Position numbers and translations under genes: made by a program
Source of the DNA: Amoebophrya sp. A120
Lineage: Eukaryota > Protista > Dinoflagellata
NCBI GenBank assembly: GCA_905178155.1
Contig: CAJINV010000006.1
Span: forward strand, 3,160,437-3,224,436
DNA length: 64,000 nt
Direction of reading: 5' to 3'
Notes under the pieces: model-generated
Databases searched by the model: none
Told to the model about the DNA's origin: nothing
What the model saw: the letters and a program-made list of their open reading frames with translations, nothing else
Shown here: piece after piece, positions 1 to 61,899 of the stretch
How positions within the stretch are numbered: position 1 is the stretch's first letter
Layout: each line of letters opens with the position of its first letter

Positions 1-3000
1 CTGCTGCTCTAGTACTGCCCGACGGTACACGGTACAGCTACTGGAGCTCGGGCGGTACAACTACTGGCGCACCGACGGGAGGAGTACTATCCGGTGATCA
101 TGTTGCGGACGGTACTACAACTGGTGCAGCTGCTGTGTATTCACCTGGTGATCCAATCGACGAGAAGTGGGTGACACCGGCAAACGTTGACGACGCGACC
201 CTGAAGGTCGACGATGAGGATCCCCGGGCTCTGTTACTACGTGCGAAGGAGGAGGAGAAGCTGAAGGCACAGGAGCGAAAAAGACAAGAGAGAGAAGAAG
301 CGGCGCGAAAAGCTGCACAAAAAGCCGCACAAGAAGAACTGGAAAAAAAGCAGCGAATGCTGAAGTACGAAAGGGAAAAGGAGAGAAAAGAGAAACTGGA
401 GAAACAAGAAAAAGAAGAGCGCGAAAAGAAAATGCTAGAACAGCAAGAGCGGGAAAAGGAGCTGGAGCTGCAACGGGAATTAGAAAGAGAACAGGAGGAG
501 CTGCAGAGGAAGCAGGCTATGCATTTTGCAGAATTATCGTACTAATTAGGAATTATCGCAGGACAAGTTTGCGTGGCAATGGCATGAGAAGTAAACTTTG
601 TCATGCTCCTGAATTGGCTTATGAACATGAAGTGCGTAGGACATTTATCATGCGGTATTGCGATAAAAGTTAGTAGGATACTTTTGCAGTGGATACCAGC
701 GGAGATTGACCTTCAGCAACAGAAGCGCGACGCCATTCGGAGGCAGCTGGAGGAGCAGCAAAAGAAGCGAAAACTGATGACGGAGCGGGAGCAAAGGGAG
801 AATGAGGAGAAAGAGCAAGCGCGCACTGCGATGGAAAGCGCGGCGAAAGAGCGGGCGGAACGGGAAGAGCTATCTGCGAGGTTAATACAACAGGAAAAGG
901 AGCAGGAAAAAGTAGAAAAGCAGAAGCAAAAGGCGACGAAAAAGAGCACTTCAACATCTGCTCACCAGGTGTTGAAAAAAGGACAAGGAGCGGGAACTGC
1001 ATCATCTCGCCAGGAGCTGTTGAAGAAGGGAGTGGAATCTAGTAGCAGCGGTAAACTACACATCAAAAAGGCGGGCAGCAAAGTTGTCGTGTCAGCGACG
1101 ACGACTAGCGGGAGTTCATCTAGTGACCACCAAAATCTTCAAAAGGGAGGACATGATGATGATGATGGTGCACCACCTCTTCACATGGAAAAAAAGAAAC
1201 TCGTGGTCGACAAGAAGGCACTTCCGAAGAAAAAAAAGAAACCCGTGGTCGACAAGAAGTTACTTCCGAATAGTAAAAACAAGGTCAAGAAATCCGTGGT
1301 GGACAAGAAGTTGCTATCCAAGAAGGAAGTGAAGGCTCTCACAGCTGCTGCCAGGAAAAAGGTGCAGGAAGAGAAGAAGACGAAAACCAATGCAGCTTCC
1401 GGGATGAAAAACAAGAAGGGGCAACAGATGCCTGCTGCCTCTACTTCTTCCACGAGCAACCCACAACAAGTTCAACGCACTACCGATCATTCTGGGCTGT
1501 CGGACATAGGAGCGCCACCTCCATCTTCGGAGAATAGAGGAGAAGGAAAGCGAAAGCAGCAGCAGCGGCAAAATGGCAAGAAGCCGAAAGTTATGAACTG
1601 CAAAAGCATCGTACTAGTACAAATTGCGATTACAAATTTGCTCAGCATGACACATTCAACTTGTAATGCTGTTTTACCTTAGGAAGAAGATTTGTCATGC
1701 ATCATAGCGCTTACTACGAGTGCAATGTTGCTTTTGCAGAGGATAAAAGTCGAACTGCGTCAGGACGGTGTTGAACAGGAGATGAAGCTGCAGGACGAGC
1801 AGGGGCTTCAACAGCTGCAAAATGCCAAAGCGCCACCTCCATCTTCGGAGAATACGAATAGAGGAGAAGGAAATATGCGAATAAAACAGCAGCAGCGGCA
1901 AAATGGCAAGAAGCCGAAAGTCGAAGTACGACGTCAGGAGGAACATCACGACGGGCAGGAGGAGGAGAAAATCGAAATTCAGCTGGAAGAACAAAATAAT
2001 AATGCCACAGCGCTGCAAAGTAGAAAGCAAAAACTTCTGCGCCAGCAGGACCACGAAGAGAAACAGAAAAAGAAAATACAGCAGGAACAACAGAACAAGG
2101 CTAAAACGCTACTTCTCCGTCAGAATCTGAAGGCGCTGCAGCAACGACAGGAACAGGAGCAGCAACTGCGCGAAAAACTTGATGCGGAGCCAGTTTTGAT
2201 GAACCAAGGGATTGCGGGGGCAGCAGCAGCAGCAGGAGCGGAGGCGGGTTATCTGTCTTCTCCTTTTGATATAATTTCCTCTGCACAGGAGCAGGATGAA
2301 AAAGGAGATTCTCATCCGGTGATCAACAACACCTCCCGGGACGAGATGTTGAACACAATCACCCACGACGCTGCTGTTTCGTCAGCTGACCGCGACTCTT
2401 TTCGTTCCAGATCTCGACTTCGTCGTCGTCCGTTAGATCGCCAATTTTCGCGATCCCGGAGCGGACACCGAGGACGGGACGAAAGAGGAAGATCTACTGC
2501 GCATAGGTCTTCGCAGGGTGGTGCCAGCGCGGTGCAAGGAGGGGGGCAGCATTCCCACCGGCCTCGCCTGGGCAGCCGCAGTACCCCAGTTAACCAACTT
2601 TTGGCACCACCCTCGACCACCAGGAGCTGTACCACGACAGGAACAAATACGACACGGAACTACAATCATGGTCTGGCAGAAGGAGCGACAAGTAGCACGA
2701 ACACCACCAGTGGTCTACTCGTTGCGCGACAGCAAGAAGATGATCAGGATCTTTTATTTCAACGGCAGTACTACGAAAATCAACAGCACTACACAAAAAA
2801 CACTGGTGCTGCTCACGGGCACCAGGCAGCAGCTTCGTCATCCTCATTCTCTGTCGGACAACAGGAAGATGAGCCTCTTGACAGCAGTAGACAGAGAGGC
2901 GAAAGTGCAGAGTCATTTTTGGACGAGGAACAGGAACGATACTATGAGGAGCTGAATTTCAACTACGACGCAGCACAGCATGTTGCAGAGAGTCCTCGTC

Positions 3001-3353
3001 GTGCCGGGTCTTTTTTAAATGATCATCATGCTGCTCCTCCTCCTCCCCCGCCCGATAGAAATATTCATCACGCGGATCATGAAACAAGAGCCACTACGTC
3101 TAGAAACAACCACGACACCACCTCCGATCTTCATCTTCCCCGTCACAACTACAGGACCCGCACGGAGTCCTTTGACTCACGACGGCGATCACGGTCGAGA
3201 GTGCGACGAGAAGACATTGATCGGAAAAGCGACAGGCGCGGCTCGGAATTATCCGGCGGAGCAGGATCGCCCACGCCACCTCGTGCAGAGAATGCTGAGG
3301 AGGAAGGAGGAGATCCGATGCTCCGGGCGTTGGGAAACATGTACCGATTTTAG
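1..3353 (+). CDS. Gene 1 (5' end outside window): K/E/Q-rich coiled-coil and low-complexity protein; 2 non-canonical introns
   Basis: Frame open from base 3; ORFs 135/603/1692 share one frame and join after removing the elements at 518 and 1592; stop at 3353. Confidence 0.75.
518..695. mobile_element. Introner family A (degenerate)
   Basis: TATGCATTTTGCA...TTTTGCAGTGGATA; DR degenerate. Confidence 0.75.
1592..1745. mobile_element. Introner family A
   Basis: TATGAACTGCAAAA...TTTTGCAGAGGATA; DR AAAGT; empty paralogous site at ~1915-1925. Confidence 0.95.
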
Positions 3354-4998
3354 GAAAACATGAAACGACGGGCGTCGTCTACAACACCCGTGCCGTTTCA
3401 GGAACAAATAATGTACGAGGTTTTTACTAGTAGAGAAGAGCGGGAAGTTGAGAAGTGCGTCGCAGCTTCTCCTCGTCATACTACTTACGTAGAACTCGAG
3501 TTTTATCCGTATCTATTTATTCTGGAGTGGTAGTGGTCTTGTTACCAACATTTTTGGCAAAAATGTTGGTTGATGTCGCCCTTTCATTTTTATTTCGACG
3601 TCGTCTGCGAGTGCGAAAATGAAAATGTCAAAACACGACATGAATTTCATCGAACTTTCTTGATGCAACACTTCATCGTCAAAAATACGGGCACATTAAT
3701 TGTGGTCTGGCTCGCATGAAAATCAAAATTCAAGTGAGCTGCCAGTACATTTTTTCAAACGACGACTTTTTGCAGCTCCAGGTGTGAGGGCCCTTCGTTT
3801 TTTATTCAAGGAGACTCAACTACAATCTGTCTTTACTCGTCCCCACCTCAGTTAGTACTAGTAGCACTAGACAGCACCCGGCTATTCAAGTCCTTGAGTC
3901 GGAAAAAATTTTGCCATTTCTGTGTTAGTCCGATACAAAACAAAGAATGCTGTCGATGAAATGAAGGAACTCCACCAACACGACGACTATACTAACTTAT
4001 TCACGAGATGAAAACTAAGAACAAGACATGGCTCGAAAATTGGTGGCGCTACCTCTAGGCTGCGAGCGACAAACAAACTTTTGGAAGACGTACGATTTCC
4101 GAGGTTACATGGCTTGCGACATTCTTATTTTTCAAATTTTCAATTCAAGTACTACAACAGATCTACTTCATGCGAAAAAATATATACGACAACCTCAACC
4201 AGCTAGAAGATGATGAAAGGCAAATGCTACCATGGATGTCTATGACTATGTCTTCACAGCTGGTTGCCATTCGATTTCTACAACATAGAGGGCCAGATAT
4301 TAGTTGCTGCAGCTTTGCTAATTGTAATTTTGACGATCGATGTGTTGTATGTGTGCAAAAATGCGAAAAATTTCATATCCTTTTCATCTAGATAAGTAAA
4401 TCTTTGAGAAAAATCTTTGCCGGGCAGCAGAGCTAGCGTCGCTCTCTTTGCACTCGTGATTGTAGTGGTTGCGAAATTTCTCCTATACAAAGGAGACGCT
4501 TTTTTTTTATATTTGTGTTGCGAACCTCAACCTCCTGTGTGTTGCAGTATCTAGGGCCAATACCAGGAGCGAAGCCGCAAAAAATCGTTGAACTGCGAGC
4601 GACTGAAAGTCTTTCTTTCATCAAGAATCTTGTCGTGTGCAAGCTGCAACAGCAAGAATTGGAAAAATCAAAGATGAAGGTTCAGTGGTGTCGCGAGTTT
4701 TGTTGTGAGTGCAAAAAGTAAAAATCTTCGTGAGTGCGACGTCGCGTTTCATTGCAAATGATTGTCCCTAGTACTCCCTTTCGCCACTCCATTGAATCAA
4801 ATTACCACGGCGCGCCGGGTGCGTGTTTGTTTCAATCTGTAGCTTGCCGAGATGAGTAGAGGACTGACGAGAACTTTTTGTCCTACCGTTATTTTAGGTG
4901 AACTATGAAGTAGTAGAGTCAGCACATCTTCATCTTGAAGGAGCAGTGTGGTTGCTTGAAAAATTACGATTTCCTCCGGCTCAGATCGCGGAAAACCG

Positions 4999-7900
4999 AT
5001 GATGTTCGCGACCGTAGTACCGGACGCCGAGGGTGTTGCAGATCCTGTGGCACCTACAACTTTTCCCGCCGCTGTTGAGCAAGCCTTTCTAACTTCCGCG
5101 ACAGAGGTCGCTGACCCGTTGCAGCAAGAAGCAGGAATAAATCAACATGAAGAAAACTACAAGTCCGGCTCTGAAACCGAGACAAGACCACGACGACCTT
5201 CTGCTGCTTCAGGTTCTACCAATCCGCCGAAAAAGAAAAAAATCCTTCCCGCGGATGACGCAACCCTGCAGAAGTACGGCACGCCGAGCCTCGCCTCGTT
5301 GAAGAATAAGTTTTCCCTCGGAACAAAATCGTTTTCCTCCACATTATTACTCCCGCCTCACAGCGCCGGTGGAACGTCAAGCCGACTGGACTCTTCCGCC
5401 GTGGCTGGTGAACAGTATTACAACAATAAATTCCGTACCCCCTCCACCGCCGCGCCGCAGAGTGCGGGAGGAGTTTTCAACAACCATCAAAATAACGCAG
5501 CACCTATGTCCACCCGCCCTTCTTCCGCCGCGTTCGAACGACGAATGATGCAAGGACGGCGGATATGAAATGAAAAAGCATCGTACTAGTTGTATATTGC
5601 ATATACAAATTTCCTCAGCATGAGAAACAAAATTTGTAATGCAGGTTTACCTTGAGAAAAAAATTTGTAATGCATGACTGCAATACGAGTACGATAGCGA
5701 TACTGTTGCAGTGCATAACGGAAAAACAAAGACGATCTGCGTTCCGAATACAGCGATTTGTTCACGCGCTTGACGAAAATTGGAGGGAATTTTGACGTAT
5801 CCTGCGCAAAAGTATCATACTCGTACTCATTGCAAATATGCATGGCAAATGTTCTTCTCAAGGTAAAACAGCATTACAAATTGCATTTGTCTTGCTGATT
5901 GCTAATTTGTCATGCAATTTATACTAGTACGACTACGATGCTTTTGCAATTCATATGACGAAAATGTAAGACGGTCGCTAGATCCAGCTGATCATGATGT
6001 TGACGGTTTATTTCACAACTACGGTCGTGGTGGTTTTGACGCAAACCGGAGTCTACAGGAGCGGCAACTACTACACGGGAAGATGATGAACACGACGGGA
6101 GAAGAAGATCATCAAGATCTTGTTTTGAGAAATAAAACCACCAACCGTCGTCCAATCTCCGCGGTGTCGTCCAACCGATCCTCCTTACAGTTCACGACGA
6201 AGATGACATCACGAAACGCAACAGCACAACAACAGCACAACAAAACGGTTTTAAACCTGCCCTTGCCGAATCTGCGGAAAAAGTCGCCCATCCAGAAGTG
6301 GAAGCAGTACCAAATGAACAAAATGGTGAAGGACTTGCGAAAAAACGTGAAGGAGCTAGAACGCCGGTCCTCCGAGAAGAAAAAGCGGCACCGCGAGCGG
6401 GCCGCGGTCGTATGCATTGCAAACACTAGTAGAAGTAATCGCATGACAAATTTCCGTAGCATGCGAAATGGAATTATTTGTAATGGGGATGCAACTAAAG
6501 AAAGAGGTTTGTAATGCATGACTGCGATTACTGCTACTAGTCCGACACTTTTGCAATGCATAGGTCGGGGACTACGACTACTCCGACACGGAGGAAGAAT
6601 ATGAAAGTGCACAACTCCCCCTCATACTCATTTGTGTTGCATGGGCAGCAATACAACCGTCAGCAGGAATGCAGGTTTTGCATGACAAATCTGCACAGGT
6701 GGATTGTAGTGCTAGTATTACTTGGGGTCGTGCCAGAACTTGTCATGCATAATAGTGACCGGAGCGTAAATTTGGAATTGGTGTTTTGCATGAGAAATGA
6801 GAACGAGGAGGACTTGTGCACTCTCATAAGGAAAATCATGAGGAGGGACCCAAATCCGCCAGGACGCCGGTGGAGAAGTTGAAAAAGCGTTTAGATCGGC
6901 AATTTTTTCGGGACCAGGACGATTTCGAAGCGGAGATACGGATTGCAAAAATGTCTGGGTTTGGAAAAATGCCAGGTTTGGCATGCTCTGCTAGCATGAC
7001 TGTCAAGTCTGTCACGCAAGGTGCCCAAAAGCGCCACTTTTGTGTCATGCAAAAACCCAGTTTCTCATGCAGAATAGGCAACACCTAGCGACTCAAAAAC
7101 CTGTCATGCTGAGCCGTCATTTCTGGCGTTGTCTTGATTCACCAACCAGCATCACAAGTTTCCAGACCCAGACATTTTTGCAGTTGATAGGAGATTTACG
7201 AAGACAACGGCTTTCTGGCCGACGAGAACTTTTCTCACCACCTTCATGGTGCGGCGGATAAGAACAACCTCCAGGGCGTTTCGAAACAGTTGAGTTACGA
7301 CGACGGCATATGGGAGTGTCAGGATTGATGAAACCGACAAAGTTGGAATTAGTTTGTCACGTAAAATGCGAGGCACAAGGTGCCTGCCTTGCGAGGATGG
7401 CAAGTGAGGCTGTTTGTCAGCCTGTTTAGGCGGGTAGAGTAGAGCTGCCAAGGATCATGACAAACGCAGTCTTCTTTGCCCCAAACAGCATGACAGATTG
7501 CGTTTCGATGTAGTAGCCGAAATTTGTCATGCGCCGCTTCGTAATTGGGGGTCCAAGTGGTATCCATTTTATGCATGACAAACTAATTTCAACTTTGACG
7601 ATTTCGGTCCTGACACTCCCATACGGCACGTCCTCTGCCGGGTTCTCCACCTCGCGCCCAACGTCCGCCACGACAAATCAAAATACTGCCTCTCGGTATC
7701 CCACGAAAAAACTGCTTCACTGTGATGATCTTGCAAGATCTGCATCACAAGTTTGTTGCCCATGACACAGAAAATTTGCCATGCGCGCTTCCAAAGGGAA
7801 AACACCGCTAAAGAGTCGAGGTCTTGCAGGTGTGGCAAGACAAATAGTTCTGTCTTCCATTCTATGCATCACAAGTTCACTGTGAAACAGTTTTTTCTTG

Positions 7901-10900
7901 CGATACTCGGCCGGTGTCCTCCAATGTGAATTTCGGCGGTGCTCCTGGAACGAGACCACCCTCGGCCACCACCGGTGGGTATCCTGTGCAAAAGTATCGC
8001 ACTCCCTCGTATAAATGCAAATGTATAGAAGGAGAAACGGTGATCATCCGACATGATCATGGACCGAAGAAAAATCGCAGCGTGCCCTCGTGGAAAGGGT
8101 GTTTTTTTTACGGACCGCAGAAATGACACAGCTTTTCCCAGGGTGTGGCAGTGTTTATTGCGCACATTATGCGAGCAGTGCTGAAGCTGAGAAAGGCCGA
8201 CAATGGGCGGGCGCTTTTGTGACCACAGGCGCTTTGTTTTCATTGTTGTTGGACGCATGAAACCACTCCACCTACATGGACACGAGCGCCCACGCGTTTG
8301 GTTCGTCGAGCGCTCTGATCTCGGCCGGAGCGCGACGCTTGACGAGGGTCGGGCCCATAGCGTAAAGCAGGCGCGTTTGGACTGTCATCCCCCGCGTGGT
8401 GCGCGCCCAGCTTCGTGCCCCGGCCTTGCCCGCCTCCCTGCCGCGAAGGCGTCGAGGCATCGACGGGCCGGGGGCCCGGCTCATTCAAATCCAGTGGTGG
8501 CTGCCTTTTGCGTGCCGCCATCGCCCACTACATTTCGGGCAGCAAAAAAATACACGGGCGCCGGCGGAGAAACGGCGCCGCTACTTACTTGCAAAAAGCA
8601 ACGGAGGCCATGCCGTCGGTGCTGAATTTGCACCGATGGCACGACGCAGTTTGGTGAAGAGAAAGAACGCGGCGCGACTTTCGCGCCCCCGCTTCAGCAT
8701 GTTGAAGACGATGAAGCACCTTGCTGCGCGGCCGCGGCAGCTGCGGCGTCTCTCTCATAGTCGGCGCAGGCAGGGACCGCGATAGACACTCGCTATGCCA
8801 TCACGCAGGGCCCCGGCCTAGCGCCTGCCAAGAAAGAACAAAAGCAGCGCCGCCGCATATAAATTTCGCCCGGCGACGAAGCGCATGCCCCGCCCGGCGC
8901 AGCCGTGGAGCCGGCTCACCTGAGAAGGGCGCAGAACTCCCAAAGCAGCCACAGCGCTGCACCGCCTCGAGCCTGGCTGCCAGTTCCTGCACCGGCCTCG
9001 GGCCCCTAACTGTGAGCGGCTGCCCCACTTGTAATTGGCAGGCCCAGCCTGGAGCCAGGGCTTCCGGGCCTTCAAGGAACTGGCGCAGAGCATACTATAG
9101 CAAGGCGCTGCTTCTTCATCTTCTTCGACAACGTGCTGCATTTCTCGCAAAGAAACGCGTTGTCGGAAATGAGTGCCGGAAGACTACAGAAAAACAATGA
9201 TAATGAGTGTCGAATCACTGATCATGAAAAAAAAAGACCCTAGTTGAATGCTGATCATCAAATCAAAAAAATCGTTTGATGATCAGCATTGCCACGAGCT
9301 AACAAAGGTGATCATCAAATCAAAAAAGTCGTTTGATGATCAGCATTCAGCTAGGGTCTTTTTGTTTCATGATCAGTGATTCGACTCTCATTTAGATCAG
9401 TGCTTTTCTGTAGTCTTCCGACACTCATTTCCGACAACGCGTTTCTTTGAGAGAAATGCAGCACGTTGTCGAAGAAGATGAAGAAGCAGCGCCATGCTAT
9501 AGTATGCTCTGCGCCAGTTCCTTGAAGGCCCGGAAGCCCTGGCTCCAGGCTGGGCCTGCAAATTACAAGTGGGGCAGCCGCTCACAGTTAGGGCCCGAGG
9601 CCGGTGCAGGAACTGGCAGCCAGGCTCGAGGCGGTGCAGCGCTGTGGCTGCTTTGGGGGTTCTGCGCTCTTCTCAGGTGAGCCGGCTCCGCGGCTGCGCC
9701 GGGCGTGGCATGCGCTTCGTCGCCGGGTGAAGTTTATATATATTTGGCGGCGCTGCTTTTGTTCTCTCTTGGCAGGCGCTAGGCCGGGGCCCTGCGTGAT
9801 GGCATAGCGAGTGTTTATCGCGGTCCGTGCCTGCGCCGACTATGAGAGACTCGCCGCAGGAGCTGCCGCGGCCGCGCAGCAAGGTGCCTCGCCGTCTTCA
9901 TGTTGAAGCCGGGGCGCGAAAGTCGCGCCGCGTTCTTTCTCTTCACCAAACTGCGTCGCGCCGTCGGTGCAAATTAAGAACCGACGGCATGGCCTCCGTT
10001 GCTTGTTGCTAGTACNNNNNNNNNNNNNNNNNNNNNNNNNNNNNNNNNNNNNNNNNNNNNNNNNNNNNNNNNNNNNNNNNNNNNNNNNNNNNNNNNNNNN
10101 NNNNNNNNNNNNNNNCGTCGCCGCCTGTCGTTTCGCCTCTCCTTTCGCCTGTCGTTTCGCCTGTCCTTTCGCCTGTCGTTTCGCCTGTCGTTTCACCTCT
10201 CGCCGCCACCTGTCGCCGTCACCTCTCGCCGTCGCCTCTCGTCTGGGGTATGTGATTACAGAACCCGGAAGTCAAGCAATATAAATATTAATCTTGTTCC
10301 CAAGGTAAATCTGCATTACAAATTTTAGTTCTCATGCTGAGAGTGTAATGCATTATATACGAATGCGATGCTTTTGCAATTCATAGTGGGACGATGAATC
10401 GTCCAATTTCTGCGTTGAGCGCAGCTGCAAAAGGCGGACCATCAACGACGAATAATCGGCCGCTCTCCGCGGTGAGCGCGAAATCAGTGCAATTCAAGGA
10501 CCAGTCGCAAATAACTTTCGGCCACAACATTTCTTCTTCTTCGGGAGAGCAGTTTCTAGAGGGGCCTGGTGGACCACAGCATGACAACTTTATTTCCGAC
10601 CATGAACATGATCCCGCGAACGACGCGAGGCTGCAGAAGCAGTTGAAGAACGAGAAACTGGGGATCAGCGACGCGGGGGGAAAACGCGGTCCGGTCTTGC
10701 TCGGGCTAGCAGAGGCTTTAATTACCTCTGCCGTTACGCCGAACCCCAGCCGCCCGGGGTCGGCGGTTCTTTTCGGAAACGCGAGCTCGATGCATGAACT
10801 GCAAAAGTATCGCACTCGTATAGAATGCATTACAAATTTTCTCCGCATGAGAAACAAAATTTGTCATGCTGATTTACCTTTAAACAAAATATTTGCAATG

Positions 10901-15165: not shown

Positions 15166-17510
15166 GTAAAGTAGAGGGTCGGCCAAAGTGAGAGGGTCGG
15201 GGAGAGGTAAAACGAGAGGTAGCGGAGAGGGTAGGGAGAGGGTGCGTAGTATGCACGCCGTTAAAGCGCGGCGATACGCGCGCAGAGGTTGGGTAGAGGT
15301 TGGGGAGAGGTAAAGTAGAGGGTAGGGGAAGAGGGTGTAGAGGGTCGGAGAGGGTGCGTAGTATAGGGCGACCCTCTAGGCGACCCTCTACCGCGACCCT
15401 CCCCGGGAGCCTCTATTTTACCTCTCAACGGACCCTCTCGGGACCTCTCCGACCCTCTCCCGGACCCTCTCCGGGAACCTCTCCGACCCTCTCCGGGAAC
15501 CTCTCCGACCCTCTCCCGGACCCTCTCTGACCCCCTCCCGGACCCTCTCCCGGACCCTCTCCGGGACCCTCTCCCGGACCCTCTCCGGGAACCTCTCCCG
15601 GAGCACAGCCAGCCCATTTTTCTGCGCGCGGCGCCTCCTCAAGAAGCTCGCTAGGGCGCAGCGACCGGCTGGCATTGCTTTCGCTTTCAGATCAGAGCGG
15701 CCGTTCAAAGTGCGTGCGCCGCTCTGCGTCCCCCAGAGTCAGGTGGAGGACGGCGGGGCCAGTTCGTGGGCTAAAAATTGGCTAAATTTTCCGGGATTTT
15801 CCCGAGACCCCAAGGCCCGGGCACCTCTCTGGCTTGGCCCGTGTGCCGCCGCCCCGGTCCGTGTCTTATCGCCCCCCCCTTCCTGGTTCGCCTCTGCCTT
15901 GTCGCCCCCATGGGGTTTGTTGGTGTCTGTGGGCCACTGGTACAGTGCGGCCGCTGTGCCTGCTCCTGCCTTGTGTTTTGTGTTTGGCCGCGCGCCAAGT
16001 TTTAAAATTTAAAAATTGGCCCGGTTTTCCGTGGAAATGCGGAGACGGCCAATTTCGACATGTCTTCCGACGGTGGTTTGCCGGATATTTTGCACCACGC
16101 AAAATATCCGGCCGCGTGGTCATGTGTGTTGCAGGGGAAGGCATTATCTCAGGAGCAACAGGCTCGAGATGGTGTTTGTCACTATCTCGGCCAAGCCCTG
16201 GGGGCTGCCTCTCCTTCTAACTGTTCTGCAGCGCGCTCCGCGCTGTGTTGTGCTTGTCTTTCTGATGACGTCGACCTTTGTCGCAGGATTCTTGTTCTAA
16301 ACGTGGCTTTGGAAATTTAGAAGTCCAGAGGACTTCCATGTTTCCAAAGCCGCGGGATTCACACTTTTTCGTCTTCGAAATCGGCGGCTAAATCTGCAAG
16401 TTGGTGATTTCCTTCCCGAAATCACTGTACTCGCGAATTTAGCCGTTCGAGGCGAAGATGGAAAGAGTGTGAATCCCGCAAAGTTTAGAACAAGAATTAG
16501 AAGGGCAATTTAGAACATGATTTAGCCATGCGATTTAGAACAAAAAATAGAATAGGATTTAGAATAGGATTTAGCCGGCCGATTTAGCACACAATTTAGC
16601 GGGCCAATTTAGAAAGGATTTTCCGCGCTTTTTGCTAAACTGCCAATTTAGCAAAAAGCGCGGAAGGCTAAATCGTTTGGGGCGGTGGAAATGTGGTGGG
16701 GAAATATAATAACTATTCGCGCATGGGATGGCGGCCCACCGACTTCCGGGGGCCAAACACATTTCCACCGGCGCCGGCTTCCGTTTGGGTCTGTCTTTCT
16801 TGGGTTCAAGGGCTTCCGCCTTCGGGCATTTCCTTTCCATGTCTATCCTCCATGCGCCATAGGGTGTCGCCTCGTTCTGTGCGCGCTCCGTCCGGGCCGC
16901 CGCAAAACAGCCGCCACAAACTCCGCTGGGGTTTTGTTTTCTTTTACCCGCGCCACGCGGGCTTTCTCTTTTCCTTCGGCGGCAACGCCGCCACGGCTGC
17001 TTTTGTCTGCCCAGACTCGTAAAAAATGCCGAAAAAATTAGCCAAAATTTAGCGGGCGAAGTCGCCCCACGCCCTCCATCTGACCAGAGGGGGCGCGGCG
17101 CCCCGCCCTAACCTGGTCGGCCACCTAGGGTGGCCGCAACTACTTTACACAGCGCCCGCGCGCGTTGGCAGCAGGTCGGTGCGTCGTCCTTGTGGCGCCT
17201 GAAACGCTGGCGCCCGGAATTAGTTCCCTGTGCGCATTTTCTCACGGCGCGCAGCTATTAAGGCCGGGCATGCAGCAGCAGGCGGAAGCGCAGGACGCGC
17301 CCCCGCGCCGTCTATTAGTAATACAGGCAGCGCTTTAGAGGCGCGCCCCTCCGGTTGCCTACCCATGCCGAAACATGGGCCGGGCTCTTTTTCTTTGGTT
17401 GTGTAGTGGCGCGCAGCGATTCATTGCTGGCGCCACCTTCCCCACCGGAACACCTCCACCGAGCAGCCCCCTCCCCGGCGGCCTCCGCCGGGGGGTGGCT
17501 GGTTTTTATA
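15166..17510. mobile_element. 2.3-kb GC-rich non-coding insertion between 27-bp direct repeats
   Basis: TTGTAAGATCGTTTTCATCTGAAACTG at 15139-15165 and 17511-17537; internal minisatellites and hairpins. Confidence 0.8.
15170..15600. repeat. GAGAGGGT-type repeats followed by complementary (ACCCTCTCCCGG)n minisatellite
   Basis: Purine-rich arm ~15170-15360, pyrimidine-rich arm ~15370-15600. Confidence 0.85.
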
Positions 17511-22000: not shown

Positions 22001-23290
22001 CAATAACTAACTTCTTCGTTTAGCAGCACTGCGACTCTTATCAAGTGTAAAAATGTCTGGGTCTGGAAGAGTGCATGTTTGTCATGCTTGTCTGGCATGA
22101 CTCTCAAATCTGTCATGCACGTTACCCAAGAGCGCCATTTTTCTGTCATGTAGAAACGCAGTCTGTCATGCAGAATAAGCAACACCTAGAAGCAGCTCAG
22201 AAACTTGTCATGCTGAGCGAGCACCTGCGGCCTCCTCATGATACGCCACCCAGCATCACAAGTTTCCAGACTCAGGCACTTTTGCATTTGATAACTCTAA
22301 GAACACTAGTATCACGACAGGTGGCTGCCTCCTGCAAGTCACCCAGGACGGCGCCGTTGTCGAGCGCGATGCGGAAAAGGATCGAGAGCTCATTCCCCGA
22401 TCGGTTAGGATGGCGCTGGCGAAGAAACCGATCAACCCAGTTCACGAACGTCTTTCGCTCGACGAGGGAAGTTTTGGGATCTGCCCGAAAACGGGAAGGA
22501 AGTCCAGGGCGATGAAAGCGCATGACCACATGGTAGAGTAGGCGAACAAAGGCTGTGTTGTAGTTTAAGTTTTCGCAACATTTGTGATGAGTAAGCGTGC
22601 CAGCTATCATGTCGCAAACGCAGTTGTACCTCGCATGACAAATTACCTGTTGATCTGCTCGCCAAGGTAAAAGGCCAGTGGGGCGGACTTTACGGCTTTT
22701 CCTTTCTCTTCAGGTATGAAAGTGCACAACTTGAACCCCTCCCCCTGATTTGTCGTGCAAAATGCCGCGCCGACGTCCTGCCGGTAGATCATCTCCGATG
22801 TCATGCAAAATGCCCAATCCAATTGCTGCGTTCTTGTGGGACTGTTTGCATGACAAATTCCGGAAGCGGCCCAAAGCCAAACACTACTAGCACTCGGAGC
22901 GTGAACTCGTCATGTACAGGCTCCACGTGTGTTGATGGCGCTTGTATTGCTGTTCATGCCAGACATTTCAGGAGGAAGGGGAGTTGTGCACTCTCATATC
23001 AGCCTGACCTGGATTATGAAGTATTCCCTCGCCAGTCAAACCGATGTCACGGTAGTGACGGATCCGAAGCGGAGAATATCTGGGTTCTACAGCGTATCAA
23101 ACATAAAAGTGTTAGTGGTACTTCTACTTCTACACGCATGCTGTGCAATAAAAATTCTTGTCGCGGGGGCTTTATTACAACTTGCCTTACCGAAAAGCAA
23201 GAACACCATACGAGAAGACAAATTTCGCTTTAACGCTAACACTTTTTGGCATGATACCCCGCGCACCAGGAAGAGCTGGATAGGATGTAA
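19059..23290 (+). CDS. Gene 3: hypothetical protein, possibly mitochondrial membrane (S/R/A-rich N-terminus, C-terminal hydrophobic segment)
   Basis: Reconstructed end GQWGGLYGFSFLF-LTWIMKYSLASQTDVTVVTDPKRRISGFYSAHQEELDRM*; localisation is inference. Confidence 0.6.
19997..20377. mobile_element. Introner family F (degenerate)
   Basis: TACCCATGGGTAAAAACTTCCCC...GGGGAAGACGTTTTACACAGGATA; DR unclear. Confidence 0.72.
20507..20735. mobile_element. Introner family B
   Basis: TIRs; DR AAGCC/AAGCT. Confidence 0.88.
20810..21115. mobile_element. Introner family G-like
   Basis: TATGAAAGCCTCAGG...CCTGAGGGTTTCATA; DR ACGTT. Confidence 0.9.
21140..21487. mobile_element. Introner family G
   Basis: TIRs; DR GTTGG. 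Confidence 0.88.
22039..22293. mobile_element. Introner family C
   Basis: TIRs; DR ACTCT. Confidence 0.9.
22715..22998. mobile_element. Introner family B
   Basis: TIRs; DR TCAGG/TCAGC. Confidence 0.88.
23095..23256. mobile_element. Introner family E (degenerate)
   Basis: TATCAAACATAAAAGTGTTAG...CTAACACTTTTTGGCATGATA; DR CAGCG/CCCCG. Confidence 0.72.
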
Positions 23291-27100: not shown

Positions 27101-30100
27101 TTGTCAAGCCCCATGCGAGTATTGATTTTTTTACTATAACGTTAACTTTGCATGACTGATTTTCGCTCTCCTAGTGCAACTGCATGACAGACTTTTGTTT
27201 TCGATCTACAGTACTAGGAAATCTATTTCTTTTCGGAAGAATATATAGCATTCGAAACTTGATGAACTTCTTCCTCTTCTACACTAAAGGTTCCCGCGGA
27301 CGCGGCATCTTCATTCTCCAGGAGCTCTCCGAGATCCCGCTCGACTGCCTGACGGTGATATTATCCTGTGCAAAAGTATCGTACTCGTAGTATTCGCAAT
27401 CATGCATCACAAATCTCCTTCCTAAGCTAAATCCGCATTACAAATTCCATTTTTCATGCTGAGGGAATTTGTCATGCGATTACTATATATTATATTCATG
27501 CGAAAAAAGAGGTAGACAGAGGGTAAACAAGAGGTGGCCGAGAGGTCAAAAAGAGGTCAAAAGAGGTAAAAAAGAGGTCGACAGAGGTGGAGAGGTGGCG
27601 CGGGGCCCCATTCGAGAGGGTCGGCGCGAGTATAGCCCGCCGAAGCGCTCACCCTAAAGCGCCGCCTAAGTGCCTGAGAGGGTGCAGGGAGGTCAAAAAG
27701 AGGGGGCGCGAGAGGTCGACAGAGGTGGAGAGAGGTGGCGCGAATAAGGGGCGACCTCTCGCGGACCCTCTTGGCCACCTCTCGGCCACCTCTGTCGACC
27801 TCTCCCCGCGAGTATAGCCGGATTATTAGCGGGGACCCCCAAAAGAGGTCAGAAAGAGGGTCTGCGGGAGGTCTGCGAGAGGGTGAAAGCACGCCCAAGC
27901 GGGCGCGAATCCGCATGGCACTCCTCATATTTGGCATTGCAGGCCATTCGCGATCTTGTTTTGTTCGGCGCCTTTCCGCGCCACCCTCTCGCGCACCCTC
28001 TCGCGCCACCCTCTCGCGCCACCCTCTCGCGCACCCTCTCGCGCCACCCTCTCGCGCCACCCTCTCGCGCCACCCTCTTGCGCCACCCTCTCGCGCAACC
28101 CTCTCGCGCCACCCTCCCGCGCCACCCTCTCGCGCTACCCTCTCGCGCCGGGCGGCTTCTGTTCGCCCCCGGTGTTCTTTTCAGCTGCTCCCTGCGCAGA
28201 GCGCCCACAGGCGCGGGAAGCGCGCAAGTGGTCCTGCGGGTTGGCGCGGTGCAAACTCCAGTATGTTTCGTTGTGCAGGACTCCAGTGCGTGTCGTTGTG
28301 CACAGACCCGTGGCGTTGTGGTCCGATCGGCAAACTGTCTCGCCCCGGCCCAACAGCCTTGCGCTCCGGCGGCAGCCGGAGCATGGCTGGTTTATACTAG
28401 TGCGATGCTTTTGCATTTCATAGATATGCCGCTACGTCGAAAATCCCTACTTGATCCAGGGTCTGAAGTATCAAATGCAAATATCGATCTGGGTCTGGAA
28501 GGTCGCAACTTGTCATGCTGTCTTTCGATTCTAAAAAAATCATCATTGCATGACCAGCAAGAGGAGTCCAGATTGTGCTACGCGGGGTACAGGTCGTTTG
28601 TCATGCGGGAGAGGCATCAGGAAGCCCTCAAAATAAAATCTGTGATGCTAGCTCTTGCATTCCAGGCCTCATGGGTCATGCGAAATATGCATGACAAACC
28701 TGGGAATCTTCCAGACCCAAACATTTTTACAATCCATATGCAGTTCGACCTGCGCCTCTACGTCCTGGTGACCGGGTTTGACCCCTTGCGAATTTACCTG
28801 TTTAAGGAGGGCTTGACCCGTTTCGCCTCCTCGGTTTTTAGCACCACGGAAGAGGATATGACAGTGCACAACTACCCCTTCCCCTCATTTAATGTGTTGC
28901 ATGAACGGCAATACAAGCGTCAGAAAGAGTGCCTATTTTGCATGACAAATTTGCACAGGAGTGTAGTACTGTTTGGGCTTCTGGAGTTTGTCATGCAAAC
29001 AGTGCCAAGGGGCAGAGCCCGGATTTGCTATTTTGCATGACAAATAAGGGGGAGGGGGAGTAGTTGTGCACTGTCATAGAGGACTTGGGAAACGTTTACA
29101 AGCATTTAACCAACTACAGGTACTAGGAATTTTACGTACAGACAATGTATAGCTTGTTCTACTTTATTGCTGTATGGCTACTTTATTTTTTTGCATCAAT
29201 CAAATACATCTACTCGTCATGCGACTTGGAAGTAATTCCGCATGACAAAATTCGTCTGAACATGATAAAAAAATACAGTATCAACAAGTACGCGTCAAAC
29301 TTTGTCGAGAACGAGGACGCGGCGCAGGACAACGTGGGGCACAAATGGAGTTTATCGGCTTTGAACAAGCATCTATCAAATGCAAATATGTCTGGGTCTG
29401 GAAGAGTGTAAACTTGTCATGCAGGTTTTCCATGACCCTTGAGGCCTGGAATGCGGGACCTAGCATGACAGAGTCTGTGAGGTCTCTATCATGCCTATCC
29501 TGCATGAGAAACTCCCTCCCAACTCGGTCGAAAGTGGACAGCCTTTGGCACTCATGCAACACAGATTTTTGCATGATTCCGATTCGGATTTAGCATGACA
29601 AGTTTACACTCTTCAAGACCCAGACGCTTTTGCACTGCATAACATCTTGCTTGCTGCAATGTGGACGTGAAACTCATGTGGTCTCGGATCATCGACGTGC
29701 TCATAAAGTGCATCCTTTCCGTCGAATATCCATTGCAAATAATGTCATCATCCATGCGCCGTCTGGATTTGTGATGCAACTGCAAGCTTTACATGGGGCT
29801 ATAGATTTGAATTTGTGTTGCCGTTGCATGAAGAGGATAATTAAGTACTACTAGCAAGTTTTTTTTTTTTGCCATGCGAAATACAACTTAGTAGAACTAG
29901 AACTACTCAGCTGGCAAAAATATGCATACCTGTCTGTATGTAAATAGATTTCTGATGTGGTACTGTCCCTACCTAGTCTGAACGTAGCCATCAAAGCGGC
30001 CTCGCGCCATGCGAGGCTCCTCAGCATGAAGACAAGTAAGACCCTCCTTGTTTCCAGACCACCCGGCTTATCGACATTCTTTGCAGTTGATATTGAAAGA

Positions 30101-36100: not shown

Positions 36101-39100
36101 GCTCTTCACTCGATCACAACCGCTGGATCACAGGTCGCCGGACCTTAGGCGTCCAAGGGCTTGCCGCAGCCTGCTTTCGCATCCTCTCGAAGAGGCCCAA
36201 AAGCCTGCCATTGCCTAGGGCTTTTCATGTGGCTGCCCATGCAGTGGCCTCTCATTGCTTTGAGAAGGCGGCGCCGCATTTTTTGGGCAGGAAGCGACCA
36301 GCGATCAGCCCCCGGCCTTTGTCTGTGGGTGGGCTGGTGGGTTCGCGCCTTCACAAATCGGGGGATTTTCTTCTAGCAAAGACGGACAACAAAGACGAAG
36401 GCCAAAAATAGCTTTTTTTTTGGCTTCCGAAATATCTTTTTTTCGTCTCCCAAAATATCTCCGGACTTTCCCGAAATATCTCCGCGAGCGACAAGGAAAG
36501 CAAAAAAAACTATCTCAAAAGTTATTTTAGCGCCGATGCTATGGAGATACTTTGGGAGATATTTCTGGAAATATTCCGAGATACTTCCGCGGAGCTTTCC
36601 GAGACACTTTCTGGCCAAAAAAGCGTCGCCCAAAATATCTTTTTTCGGCTTCCAAAAATATCTTTTTTTGGCTTCCCAAAATATCTTTTTTCGGCTCTTC
36701 AAAATAGCTTCTTCCTTCTAGACCTTTTGGTCTGCGGATAAGGAGGGGGAAAAAGAGGGACAATCAAGATGCCCGAGGCGGCTACTTAAGGCTCCGTCAG
36801 GGTGCGCGCAGCAGGTGCGTGCCCAATGTTGCGTTGCCCTCAGGGTACCAGCGGCGCCCACCTAGGCGGGACGCACGCTCGCAGTGCCGGCGCGGGCAAC
36901 TTAAAAACCGCTAGGGAGAATGGGGGCCGGGGCGTGACACCTAGAGCTCGCGCAACAAAGTGCAGGGAGGCAGCGCGCAGCGTGTCATGCCGCCTGTGCC
37001 TTAGGACACCGCGCAAGCGCGCGGGCTCTATGCGCTAGCACAAGCGATGCGCCTCGCGCGCAATACCGCCGCCGCGCCAAGCAAAGGCTCCGCGGCTTTG
37101 GCAGGGCGGGCGTGAGGCGCTTTGTTGGGTTCAATTTTTTTTTTGAAAAAAAAAATATCAAAAAAACGGGAGATAATTTGGCTTCGGGTGCCATCCAGAC
37201 GGGCCCATGATAACAATAACTAAACAGGGCCCTCACCACCTCCTACGCTCCCAACGGAACCCTACTCCACCCGAACAACTCCGGCGGACCATATCAAATG
37301 CAAAAATGTCTGCTTCTGGAAGATTGCGAGGTTTGTCATGCACATTTTGCATGACTCCTGACGTCTGTGATGCATGCCCTAGCATCACAGATTTTGTGAG
37401 GGCTTCCTGATGTCTATACCGCATGACAAATGCTCTTTCCGTGTAGCAAAATTTGGACTCTCTTTGCTGCTTATGCAATACAGATTTTTTTAGAATCCAA
37501 AATCAGCATGACAAGTTGCATTCTTCCAGACCCAGACACTTTTGCATGTGATAGGTCAATGCTGCTGCCCACAGGTGGAGCGCAGAATCAGCAGGATCCA
37601 GCTAACGCCAGTCCGAACAAGTTGAGAAATCAATCGGTCGGGAATTGGCAGTCGTACTACCGTATGCATTGCAAAAGTATCGTACGTAGTATGAATTGCA
37701 TCACAAATTCAAATTCTGTCAAGAAGAAAAATGCAACTTGTCATGCTTGTTTACCTAAAAGGGGTAGTTTGTCATGCACGATAGCAATGACCACGAGTGC
37801 GATATCACTTTTGCAATGCATATACCGGAATTACGGCCAGAACCTCGCGGACAACGATCCGAACCGACCGGGCAGTCCGCAGAACCGCGTGCTGCAGCAA
37901 ATCAACCGAACGCGGTACGTATGCATTGCAAAAGCATCGCACTCGTTGTATCGCAATCCTGCACTACAGATCTTTTTCTTAACGTAAATCAGCATTGCAA
38001 ATTTTATTTCTCATGCTGAGGAAATTTGTAATGCATTTATATAGCTACGATAGCGAAGATACTTTTGCAATTCATAGTACAACGGTCAAGGGGGTGCGCC
38101 TGGGGTAGAGATGATGCTCGAAGGTCCGGTCATGATGGAGAACGGCTCGCCACTGAAGAGCAGGAGCATGAACGGTGCAAGTGGGGGGCAACTACATGGC
38201 TCGTCGCAGGACTTGCAACAGGTGCGTATGTTGAAAAGTTCAAACGTAATAAGAATCGTTTTTCAGTTCCTTCATTCCTATTGTCCACGCTCTGGAGGTG
38301 CATTTGGATTTGTCATTCTTTCAAAATCAAAACCAAGAAGTACGAAAAAACAAAATAAACGCCAGACCGCCGCCAACCAAGCTGCTTCTAGTACAAGTTC
38401 CACGCTGCACAACGCGAAAGTGTCCGCCTTGGCCAGAAAAGCTTACCCAACCATATGACCTGCTCAAGCATTACAATCTCAAACGTTACAACAGAATCTT
38501 CTTGGACTTGTCTTGCACAATGAGCATGGCAGACTCGCAGAGCGTTCCACTTTCTGCAATACAAATTTCGCCAGATTGTAGTGAGGTTTGGGATGACTCC
38601 GGAACTTGTCATGCGCAATCGTATGAGAGTTGGCTAGATCATGCATTTCTTGCATCACAGATTTGCTCTTCCATATTCTATTGCACCGGTTAAGAAGATT
38701 GTAACATCTGAGCGGGGTATAAATCAACAACCTCGTGGAGCAGCATTCGGAGCTGATCGGCCCCCCGGTGGATGTCAATTTATCGAAAGAAAAAACTGTT
38801 TCACTGTAAGCTAGATAGTGATGCACAGAATTCTGGAATCAACAGAAGGATTTGTGTTTGTCTTGCTACACCTACCTGATGCACCATGACAGTGTCCTCT
38901 CGGTAGTTGTGTTTTCACCCGCTGCCCTCAGACATGGCAAGTTTTTCTATGTCTTCATGCGTAACTACGAACTTGTGATGCGAATTTTGCAAAATTATCC
39001 TTACATCAGTGGAGCATTGTTTTCCCGCGATACAGTTGGTCCCCCAAGCAAAGACCGAGAGCCTTGTCGATGCCGCGGCCAAGGACAGCTGAGTTATCGA

Positions 39101-39340
39101 CATGATCGCAAAAGTAGAAGTGTCTCGCTTGTTGCCTTGCAGCACCACTGCATCACAAATCTCATTAATTTCATCTCGATTTGTCATGCTGAGCAGATTT
39201 TTTGATGTCATGCAAAAGGAGCAAGAACTACTAGCGTATCAATCGACAAAAATACTTTTGCAGTGCATATCACCGGAAGAGCAACAATGTGTCCAGCACG
39301 ACGAGTAGCGTGATTATGGGAGTGGATATCGAGTTGTGAT
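24131..39340 (+). CDS. Tubulin-tyrosine ligase-like protein (tubulin polyglutamylase, TTLL4/5-like) with long low-complexity tail; >30 introns; start and end approximate
   Basis: Spliced motifs: [133 protein letters not shown]. Confidence 0.93.
24302..24451. mobile_element. Introner family A
   Basis: TIRs; DR TGTGG. Confidence 0.9.
24525..24706. mobile_element. Introner family E
   Basis: TIRs; DR AAGGC/AATGC. Confidence 0.8.
24765..25081. mobile_element. Introner family C (diverged)
   Basis: TIRs; DR AGAGA/AGAAA. Confidence 0.82.
25115..25306 (+). other. Canonical GT-AG intron with residual TGTGATGC motif
   Basis: AG|GT...CAG|; joins IPPIS-FERVPG in frame. Confidence 0.75.
25366..25522. 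mobile_element. Introner family A
   Basis: TIRs; DR CGTGC. Confidence 0.92.
25621..25878. mobile_element. Introner family C
   Basis: TIRs; DR GCAGA/ACAGA. Confidence 0.9.
25982..26170. mobile_element. Introner family H
   Basis: TATGCACAGTAAATT...AATTTTGTGTTGCATA; DR ACTAC/ATTGC. Confidence 0.8.
26234..26571. mobile_element. Introner family F
   Basis: TIRs; DR GGGCT/TGGCT; splits [13 protein letters not shown]. Confidence 0.88.
26635..26994. mobile_element. Introner family C with internal expansion ending in (GAT)n
   Basis: TIRs; DR CGACT. Confidence 0.9.
27119..27289 (+). other. Canonical GT-AG intron with introner-like remnants
   Basis: Joins [12 protein letters not shown]; contains TAACGTTAAC and GCATGACA. 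Confidence 0.85.
27362..28422. mobile_element. Introner family A with ~0.9-kb nested insert
   Basis: TIRs at both ends; DR GATAT; joins LTVI-CRYVENP. Confidence 0.9.
27485..28392. mobile_element. Nested GC-rich element: AGAGGT repeats, 13-bp (CCACCCTCTCGCG)n minisatellite at ~27978-28148, terminal hairpin
   Basis: Layout and right end resemble 15166-17510. Confidence 0.75.
28469..28738. mobile_element. Introner family C
   Basis: TIRs; DR TGAAG/TGCAG; splits K-FDLR. Confidence 0.92.
28857..29078. mobile_element. Introner family B
   Basis: TATGACAGTGCACAACTAC...GTAGTTGTGCACTGTCATA; DR GAGGA. Confidence 0.94.
29120..29278 (+). other. Canonical GT-AG intron with residual GTCATGC/GCATGACA pair
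   Basis: Joins HLTNY-SINK. Confidence 0.85.
29374..29641. mobile_element. Introner family C
   Basis: TIRs; DR GCATC/ACATC. Confidence 0.9.
30191..30313. mobile_element. Introner family A (short, 123 bp)
   Basis: TIRs; DR GGTTA/GGCTA; splits [12 protein letters not shown]. Confidence 0.9.
30371..30628. mobile_element. Introner family C
   Basis: TIRs; DR CACGC. Confidence 0.92.
30897..31069. mobile_element. Introner family A
   Basis: TIRs; DR ACCTC/ACCCC. Confidence 0.86.
31122..31380. mobile_element. Introner family C
   Basis: TIRs; DR CACAG. Confidence 0.92.
31436..31587. mobile_element. Introner family A
   Basis: TIRs; DR GAAGC. Confidence 0.92.
31678..31932. mobile_element. Introner family C
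   Basis: TIRs; DR TGCTC. Confidence 0.9.
32031..32169. mobile_element. Introner family A
   Basis: TIRs; DR GAATC. Confidence 0.92.
32271..32431. mobile_element. Introner family E (opposite orientation to 11580)
   Basis: TIR including TAACGTTAACGG; DR TGCGG/CGCGG. Confidence 0.86.
32620..32938. mobile_element. Introner family G (opposite orientation to 7309)
   Basis: TIRs; DR CGGCA. Confidence 0.92.
33625..33898. mobile_element. Introner family C
   Basis: TIRs; DR GACTC/GAGTC. Confidence 0.88.
34004..34273. mobile_element. Introner family C
   Basis: TIRs; DR ACGAA. Confidence 0.92.
34648..34800. mobile_element. Introner family A
   Basis: TIRs; DR GTCGT. Confidence 0.92.
34865..35158. mobile_element. 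Introner family F
   Basis: TIRs; DR GATGA. Confidence 0.9.
35207..35359. mobile_element. Introner family A
   Basis: TIRs; DR GCACA. Confidence 0.92.
35521..35675. mobile_element. Introner family H
   Basis: TATCCACAGTAAATTTCCCGTAC...GTACGGGAAATTTGTATTGCATA; DR GCCGT. Confidence 0.9.
35780..37227 (+). other. Probable GT-AG intron derived from a family-A introner that lost its TIRs and carries a nested transposon
   Basis: GT at 35780; family-A core ~35786-35875; CTAAACAG ending 37227. Confidence 0.6.
35883..37213. mobile_element. 1.33-kb non-autonomous TIR DNA transposon with 6-bp target-site duplication
   Basis: TTATCATGGGC...GCCCATGATAA; subterminal CCGTTTTTTTGATATTTT also inverted; CAATAA on both sides. 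Confidence 0.88.
37292..37553. mobile_element. Introner family C
   Basis: TIRs; DR GACCA/GGTCA. Confidence 0.86.
37663..37822. mobile_element. Introner family A
   Basis: TIRs; DR TACCG. Confidence 0.92.
37920..38076. mobile_element. Introner family A
   Basis: TIRs; DR GTACG/GTACA. Confidence 0.9.
38454..38721. mobile_element. Introner family I
   Basis: TATGACCTGCTCAAGCATTACAATCT...AGATTGTAACATCTGAGCGGGGTATA; DR AACCA/AATCA. Confidence 0.78.
38781..39032. mobile_element. Introner family D
   Basis: TIRs; DR CAATT/CAGTT. Confidence 0.82.
39095..39269. mobile_element. Introner family A (degenerate 5' end)
   Basis: 3' TIR TTTTGCAGTGCATA and internal motifs; DR not evident. Confidence 0.6.
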
Positions 39341-52355: not shown

Positions 52356-53119
52356 ACTGCTTTTATTAAACGGGTGACGGTGAGCAGTTGAAGTTTTATT
52401 AGAACCGCTTTTGCATTTTCTGTGCAAGAAGTGCAGCAGTGGTCTCGAAGCACCCCAGGCGGCTCTCCCGGTTCCACTAAGTACAAATGAATAAAGAATG
52501 CCTGGTGGCGCCCTCCAAGAACATGTGACTCATTCCCATAATATTTTGCTTTTGTTTGCAAGCGACAACATTGATATACTAGCGTTTTCATATGATCAAA
52601 AATGAACACGCGCAACCGCAACGAGACTATCACTATCATGCGAAGAAGATTTATTTTCGCACGTCTGCGGATAGAGAAATGAAATGAGCGACGCAATAAA
52701 TGCAGCGTTTGACCATGACGACCACACGAGCACGACTAAGGCAATGACGATTGATGGGCGGGAAGATTGGAATAATGCCAGGTTTCCTTGTTCGAGCGTT
52801 GCGGCTGCACACTGGTGACGTGTTGGTCGCCTGCGCTGTGACAGTTAGCGGCTTTCTTGTTTTCATCTAAAAGAAGGATCGATCTAGATCTACATCTACT
52901 GCCTCTAGTGTCTTGGAAAAAGATGCGCTACAGCTACACGATCTCCAAAGTAGACGTTGCGAGTGAAGATGAAAACGCTGTTTGCTGTTTGACGTTTACC
53001 TCGAGCGGGGAAGTTGATGATGAGATTTGGTATACGTCGTTTCGTTTGTCGTCGGGAAGGAAGTAGTGCTTAAGTAATGGAATAAAGAAGACTGAGGTTG
53101 TTCTTGAGCTACTTGCAAG

Positions 53120-56844: not shown

Positions 56845-57774
56845 AGAGAACGACTCTGTTTTGCAAAGAACGCAGGAAGGGTAATTCATTGCACCGTAAA
56901 GAAATCGACGACTGTAGTTCTAGTTGATGTACAAGTAGATAGCACAAATCCATCCCGAATACGATTTGCAAAGTTCTTCTTGGAGCCAAATCGTGAATTG
57001 CAGATGGTCTGGCAAGCACACTAGCGTGGTGCTCGCAAAGATGAGTAGATAATGAAGCATCGGGTAGTCTTGATTTGTCGTTGTGCGACCAGGACCACCA
57101 AGACCATGCAATATACGAAGTGGATTCTTCTTGCAATTTTGGAGAAAATTAAATCGGTACAGCCAGCAGTGCTTTGTGTCGTGATGTTAATAAATTCATC
57201 GGTGCTGATTAGTCGTCGTCGTCGTCGGTTTTCTTGCGTCAGAATGTTGTGGACACGACCACCATCTTCAGAAGCACAACGTGACTGAATAGCTCTCGGT
57301 GACTGAATGGTCATTCTCGGTTTGGATAGAGTTGCTTGCTTTTCTTATTCTTTCCCACATCGGTTACAAGTTCGTAGTACCAATCTTGGTGTCGGCGTCG
57401 CTTCTCATCACGTAAAAAAGATGACCGTGTGATAGTGATTTTCATCTTCGCATCGGTTGCTTCACTGAATCCGAAGCCTGGTAAGTTGCGAAAAAACTGC
57501 TGCTCGTCGTGGCGTTTACTCATATATCTAGAAGGCTATTTCGAATTCGAAACCGCCAACACAGCAAGTTTGTTTCAAGTTTGCACCCCCCCCCCCAACA
57601 AAGAAGATTTTTTCAAATCGTAAGCACTAAAAACCCTTGCTGGAGATGCGATAGTTTCTCAACCTCACTGCATTTGATGTCCTCCCTTTTGCTGACTACG
57701 TAGCAGATTTGCGTTATCTGAAAAATAATTCCTGTATGTAAACGAGAGCAACGACCTCGACAGCCGGTACTACT

Positions 57775-61757: not shown

Positions 61758-61899
61758 GCTTTGGCTTAGTATTTGAGGACCAAAATAACAAAGCCACGAC
61801 GAATCGGATTCATCGTGGCGCAGGCACTGCACGTCAATTCACAGAAGATGCTGAACTACTTACCATGTGAACTGGTGCTTATCTTCATGTCATTAACAT

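Follow-up and report, generated by a model that had tools for sequence, protein, structure and literature searches.

The left end of the 64,000-nt stretch of Amoebophrya sp. A120 DNA analysed here (the window) carries a plus-strand gene that contains a tandem duplication, one unit of which is interrupted by a 154-nt insert. The insert (1592-1745) starts with TATG, ends with GATA, and has stops in all three plus-strand frames. Its terminal inverted repeat is complementary at 12 of 15 nt and shows TAT-N7-AAA at both ends (1592-1604 on the plus strand, 1733-1745 on the minus strand). AAAGT flanks it on the left (1587-1591) and on the right (1746-1750), giving a removal length of 159 nt. We compared the locus with contigs from several runs: X1 was read as DNA, and X3 to X6, which represent one sample, were taken to be RNA by guess, no listed run being recorded as RNA. 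The features of the locus are as follows.

3-3353, plus strand: host gene for a low-complexity, coiled-coil-like protein, with its 5' end beyond the window; X3 contigs continue to 4291
518-695, no strand assigned: an older introner of the host gene, whose repeat copies have diverged (CAGGC / CCAGC); 183 nt are skipped in X3 (515 joined to 699)
1511-1828, plus strand: tandem unit 1, with the filled site, 159 nt once spliced (alignment)
1587-1591, plus strand: left copy of the target-site duplication, AAAGT (sequence)
1591-1749, plus strand: probable intron at the family register, TT...AG, 159 nt (RNA-like contigs, register)
1592-1745, no strand assigned: introner element, non-coding, 154 nt, with TAT-N7-AAAA terminal inverted repeats (sequence, family census)
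1746-1750, plus strand: right copy of the target-site duplication, AAAGT (sequence)
1829-2008, plus strand: tandem unit 2, with the empty site and one AAAGT at 1917-1921 (alignment)

The duplication is longer than the segment described in the initial annotation, as the tandem unit is bordered by AGCG at 1511, 1829, and 2009. Pairwise alignment of the two copies, which had been proposed as a check, upheld the idea of a filled and an empty site: with 159 nt removed, copy 1 matches copy 2 over 39 identical nt across the junction, and the only match to this run in the window is 1887-1925. When removal lengths of 150 to 169 nt were compared, 159 gave the best downstream match to copy 2 (8 of 12 letters; the runner-up had 6). 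The spliced length of unit 1 (159 nt) equals the length spliced out of it (159 nt), which is probably a coincidence. Removal of the focal intron and of the upstream 183-nt intron leaves a single frame of 1002 codons plus a stop (3-515 + 699-1586 + 1746-3353).

In the host protein, the two exons flanking the focal site matched no Pfam family, and the first exon gave a weak, below-cutoff match; the protein had no Atlas match, and homologue searches found none. Rfam gave no match in the 64-kb window. Elsewhere in the window lie two intron-riddled plus-strand genes, one with a tubulin-tyrosine ligase domain (27748-29037, above cutoff) and one with a piece of an RNA pseudouridylate synthase (45533-46066, below cutoff), as well as intergenic pyrimidine-rich tandem arrays with units of 10 to 13 nt (15435-15616 and 27969-28162). 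A near-perfect 1.4-kb palindrome at 8586-10014, with arms 87 to 97% complementary, abuts a 100-N assembly gap and may be a foldback element or an assembly artefact.

The focal element belongs to a family that is abundant in the window. TAT-N7-AAA occurs 172 times against 31 expected (reached in 0 of 100 shuffles), and we called 72 such elements, covering 25% of the window. About 20 relatives of the focal element, in both orientations, are 63 to 81% identical to it, with scores of 116 to 207 compared with a shuffle maximum of 67. For a census of the flanks, 76 elements were chosen on their inverted ends alone, with the flanks disregarded. An exact 5-bp direct repeat borders 36 of the 76, and 57 have one with at most one mismatch; none has an exact repeat of 3, 4, or 6 to 10 bp. 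When the pairing was shuffled, exact 5-bp repeats numbered 0.57 on average, and three Markov controls yielded 5 to 8 picks each, none with an exact repeat. The 5-bp repeats vary in sequence between elements and show no strong base bias. It is this difference from element to element that proves a target-site duplication, the status which had been proposed for AAAGT from the focal site. Short, non-coding, and with inverted ends that are bordered by a duplication of constant length and varied sequence, these elements have the properties of MITEs, i.e., non-autonomous terminal-inverted-repeat DNA transposons.

Some individual elements are worth recording. One member of the focal family, at 53753-53915, also has an AAAGT duplication; its flanks are unrelated, and X4 and X6 pass over it as a gap of 168 nt. 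Two 262-nt elements (58268-58529 and 58576-58837) are 83% identical and 46 nt apart, possibly the result of a local hop. Altered terminal triplets occur at 54497-54724, 61633-61975, and 63807-63975 (TAT..ATG twice, TAA..ATA once); the element plus 5 nt is still removed in these cases, which makes them useful for mapping which end letters matter.

To establish how the focal element leaves the RNA, we relied on contig ends, which can decide the focal splice since the assembly graph breaks at the two repeat copies. X1 covers the gene region continuously, as expected of DNA. X3 behaves as expected of RNA: 516-698 is missing from it, depth is zero over 4481-5600, and coverage ends at 4291. Run X7 has nothing but short gapped pieces over the region, and X9, an RNA run of 2026 under the same species label, placed 0 reads and carries no weight either way. 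In X3, contigs end at 1586, a 192-nt contig consists of 21 letters joined to 1746-1916, and the next contig starts at 1896; the corresponding X1 contig starts at 1892, the position expected without splicing. We simulated 31-mer contigs under eight removal models, and precise removal of 159 nt was the only one to give both a 192-nt contig and a start at 1896. Retention of both repeat copies or of neither, and in-frame removals of 156 and 162 nt, were ruled out by the same simulation. We infer from these contig ends, in one run that is probably RNA, that the focal element is absent as an exact 159-nt removal; contigs drop minor forms, and the joint at this site was read indirectly. A frame test was run across the family as well: junctions fall inside long frames for 44, 48, and 48 of 72 elements when the element plus 2, 5, or 8 nt is removed, compared with 15 to 18 otherwise. 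As these three lengths are supported alike, this test fixes the removal length modulo 3 only.

These results bear on most of what the initial annotation had claimed. The assignment of TAT and ATA to the element is borne out by the family census and the RNA-like contigs, and the proposal that losing 159 nt restores the codons agrees with the 1002-codon frame and the X3 contig ends. The cDNA junction had been expected to equal the empty site, and the X3 contig ends do fit the copy 2 junction, an indirect agreement from one run that is RNA by guess.

Where exactly the RNA is cut is a separate question. At the focal site six cut positions yield an identical RNA, none of them GT-AG, and the cut is hidden because the repeat copies are perfect. 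We therefore turned to other elements, in which the repeat copies have diverged and the kept letters can be read in the RNA. Comparison of X3 to X6 with positions 37100-57000 supplied 15 of 30 joints, and 3 further joints brought the number analysed to 18. Sixteen of these remove a TAT..ATA element plus 5 nt, one removes a TAT..ATG variant in the same way, and one is a canonical GT-AG intron, which indicates plus-strand transcription. Splicing occurs for elements in both orientations (forward, 1592, 37663, 53753, and 55900; reverse, 37920, 54857, and 56488).

Diverged repeats are present at 11 of the 16 TAT..ATA joints, and all 17 diverged positions agree with one register. The RNA keeps the left-copy letter at repeat positions 1 to 4 (13 of 13) and the right-copy letter at position 5 (4 of 4), and the intron is therefore N TAT...ATA NNNN, with the 5' cut 1 nt before TAT and the 3' cut 4 nt after ATA. 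An annotated Amoebophrya sp. A120 protein, P0001, extends this result: its residues 1-1127 correspond to 12 exact segments in the window at 57775-64000, and it was the only match of the open reading frame at 59907-60953, which assigns the window to A120 or to the same species. Its 11 junctions comprise 5 that are uninformative, 5 that are compatible with the register, and 1 that fixes the register alone, although the gene model may derive from the same RNA data as the X3 to X6 joints. The element at 63807-63975 has a perfect repeat and is uninformative. All 17 informative junctions (11 RNA, 6 protein) are compatible with one register, which two elements set by themselves.

39095-39269, no strand assigned: element whose repeat copies differ at positions 2 to 5 (TGAGT / TCACC); the RNA joint 39093-39274 (X3, X4, and X6, one sample) alone sets the register
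61633-61975, no strand assigned: TAT...ATG variant element (AAACT / CAAGA); annotated protein P0001 is compatible with the family register only

With plus-strand genes assumed, the donors of 75 elements at this register are AT (21), CT (20), GT (19), and TT (15). All 16 pairs occur as acceptors, AG in 9 of 75, and GT-AG ends were found once in 75. Among these 75 elements there is neither a G enrichment at the donor nor a strong AG enrichment at the acceptor, and for this reason we claim no drift toward canonical ends. The single GT-AG element, at 22715-22998, has G in the left repeat copy and C in the right and may itself have drifted to a canonical intron. Use of the family register at the focal site (1591-1749) would give TT...AG ends, not the GT-AG ends of a U2-type spliceosomal intron; the register is extended to this site from its relatives.

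We conclude, with a probability of about 0.8, that the focal element is an A120-type introner whose inverted ends read TAT...ATA, that it likely entered copy 1 by an insertion that duplicated 5 bp of the target, and that its splicing likely follows a fixed register, 1 nt before TAT and 4 nt after ATA. The anatomy of the element, the 5-bp repeat across the family, the absence of elements together with 5 nt from RNA-like contigs, and the single compatible register are the observations on which this conclusion builds. Insertion would be of the DNA-transposon type, by a transposase-like enzyme with a 5-nt stagger. PMC7789003 reports no transposase in A120; according to PMC12130899, some A120 introners contain integrase-like open reading frames inside the inverted repeats.

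In splicing, the element ends would act as landmarks: the first T would always lie at intron position +2, where the U of GU sits, and the 3' site would be measured from the terminal ATA and not chosen by AG. Because 1 + 4 equals the length of the duplication, removal would be free of scars at any 5-mer and in either orientation. The machine would most likely be a modified spliceosome without U1, a putative assignment that we hold to be somewhat better than even, and the terminal hairpin would bring the intron ends together. With its constant T at +2 and A at +3, the start of the intron looks like a spliceosomal donor. Structure prediction gives a terminal stem in the majority of verified elements, the focal one among them; in 12 of 16, pairing averages 0.5 or more across the first 15 pairs. 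Predicted TAT:ATA pairing is near 0 for the elements at 39095 and 54857, and folding z-scores are weak (-1.48 and 0.23). In the element at 39095 the inner stem is displaced by a 5-nt insert and the cut keeps its place, which favours measurement from the terminal triplet.

The same element could instead be removed at the same register by a structure- or end-guided endonuclease together with a ligase, which we regard as possible but distinctly less probable. Neither cut shows a dinucleotide preference, both orientations work, and the stem is predicted in most verified elements; however, the cut is asymmetric to that stem, the letters at +2 and +3 suit a spliceosomal donor, and cutting stays exact at 39095 without predicted terminal pairing. 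Published observations fall on both sides: such a machine is suspected for euglenid nonconventional introns, which leave as full-length circles (PMC11282704), and PMC7789003 reports that no U1 was detected in A120, yet that U2, U4, U5, U6, and most spliceosomal proteins are retained.

It is unlikely that the cuts vary within the 5-bp repeat between elements or molecules and that a small sample has produced the single register by chance. The text of PMC7789003 describes where the cuts lie relative to the hairpin as variable or unknown, and its Fig. 3 legend and section 11 speak for variable cuts. If cuts could fall anywhere in the repeat, the probability of a shared register among the RNA joints would be 0.0025; it is 0.06 for mixtures of three adjacent positions and 0.13 to 0.25 for two, so that the RNA joints taken alone are still compatible with a one-base spread. 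Against variable cuts, none of the 17 informative junctions contradicts the fixed register, the elements at 39095-39269 and 61633-61975 set it independently, and T is second at all 9 predominant non-canonical A120 sites in Table S4 of PMC7789003. The published variability would be expected if aligners slide junctions inside perfect repeats.

The history of the two copies is a further point on which the spliced introner has to be weighed against another account. Within the tandem unit, the 5' half is identical at 84 of 85 positions and the 3' half at 51 of 68, with gaps (Fisher p 3e-6); the identity of the 3' half still exceeds that of codon shuffles (5/2000). The 5' half looks recently homogenised, which suggests later conversion between the copies. 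The conversion may have taken place at the DNA level and halted at the element; alternatively, its template may have been a spliced copy, which would have erased an element from unit 2. The duplicated segment had been put forward as a built-in control: the filled and empty sites stand, but with its 5' half in this state copy 2 is a weaker control than had been thought.

Gain of the element in copy 1 is strongly favoured over loss from copy 2, though not proven; a single insertion into unit 1, inferred to be later than the duplication, is the simplest history. An element older than the duplication could have left copy 2 in a precise loss, for instance when the copy recombined with reverse-transcribed spliced RNA, and copy 2 would then be a restored site. 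The focal element differs by about 20% from its nearest relatives in the window and for this reason need not be young, and the contrast between the two halves of the unit would fit such an exchange. We nevertheless consider loss improbable, as one insertion already accounts for the pattern, the focal AAAGT copies remain identical, the roughly 25% divergence of the 3' half allows time for an insertion after the duplication, and DNA-level conversion ending at the element also explains the homogenised 5' half. Finally, an ordinary 160-nt GT-AG intron at 1590-1749, or no removal and a broken gene, is scarcely credible: GT and AG are present at those positions, but a 160-nt splice would put the frame out (from 699, a stop is reached after 308 codons, versus 831), and the X3 contigs contradict at contig level both GT-AG removal (197 nt / 1890 predicted) and the unspliced state (355 nt / 1892 predicted).

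Introners of this kind are already known. PMC7789003 (Farhat et al. 2021) describes 29,850 repeated introns in A120, 17% of the assembly, with inverted repeats of 8 to 20 nt (TAT, 7 variable nt, and at least 3 A) and direct repeats of 3 to 5 nt. The focal element shares with them the organism, the TAT + 7 nt + AAA ends, a direct repeat at the exon border, non-canonical ends, and membership in an intragenic repeat family; its non-canonical removal was read from contig ends in one run taken to be RNA by guess. Since every testable feature of A120 introners is found in it, its kind is not new. The window differs from the text of that report, which gives 3- to 5-nt repeats and variable cuts, in that the repeats are 5 bp and one register fits the informative junctions; the legend to Fig. 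S19 there does mention a 5-bp repeat. An intragenic pair of filled and empty sites is not mentioned in the sections of PMC7789003 that were compared. We did not find the fixed register in a full-text literature search that included PMC7789003, PMC12130899, PMC9860276, PMC11282704, PMC11453091, PMC12005148, and 10.1101/2020.10.14.339549, as far as their accessible text goes; Fig. 3, 4b, S19, S22, and S23 of PMC7789003 and the datasets of PMC12130899 may show it.

Comparable elements occur in other lineages. According to the parts of 10.1101/2020.10.14.339549 and PMC9860276 compared, introners of Aureococcus, Symbiodinium, and Polarella likewise combine inverted ends with a target-site duplication, the signature of non-autonomous DNA transposons, and are cut without a scar within or beside the duplication, some classes in both directions. 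Those introners carry or co-opt GT/GC/GA and AG, with set letters supplied by the target, whereas in the window elements no particular dinucleotide is required at either cut and nothing but the elements' own ends is constant. The nonconventional introns of euglenids and the non-canonical introns of Fritillaria also derive from transposons, as described in PMC11282704; their inverted repeats keep a set distance to the splice sites, and their junctions are repeat-like. Euglenid introns pair +4..+6 with -8..-6 and prefer pyrimidine/purine junctions, whereas the stem of the window elements runs from +2 to -5 with no junction preference; Fritillaria introns are mostly AG-AC or AG-AT, unlike the window elements (PMC11282704).

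Some 29,850 repeated introns were already known from A120, the focal element being one of them, and the filled and empty pair is an illustration; the fixed register is the added result. The text of PMC7789003 does not settle how these introns are spliced when GT-AG ends are lacking and U1 is undetected. We consider it rather more plausible than not that tens of thousands of A120 introns are spliced by a ruler that reads the TAT/ATA ends, cutting 1 nt before and 4 nt after them, with any flanks and in either orientation. If so, the two offsets would sum to the 5-bp duplication and each insertion would be a scar-free intron from birth, and the published "unprecedented variety of splice sites" would be one rule viewed through random target sites. 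Such a fixed geometry would provide true intron ends, places in which to seek branch points or circles, and corrected gene models, and it would explain how insertion can be blind to the sequence and the orientation of its target.
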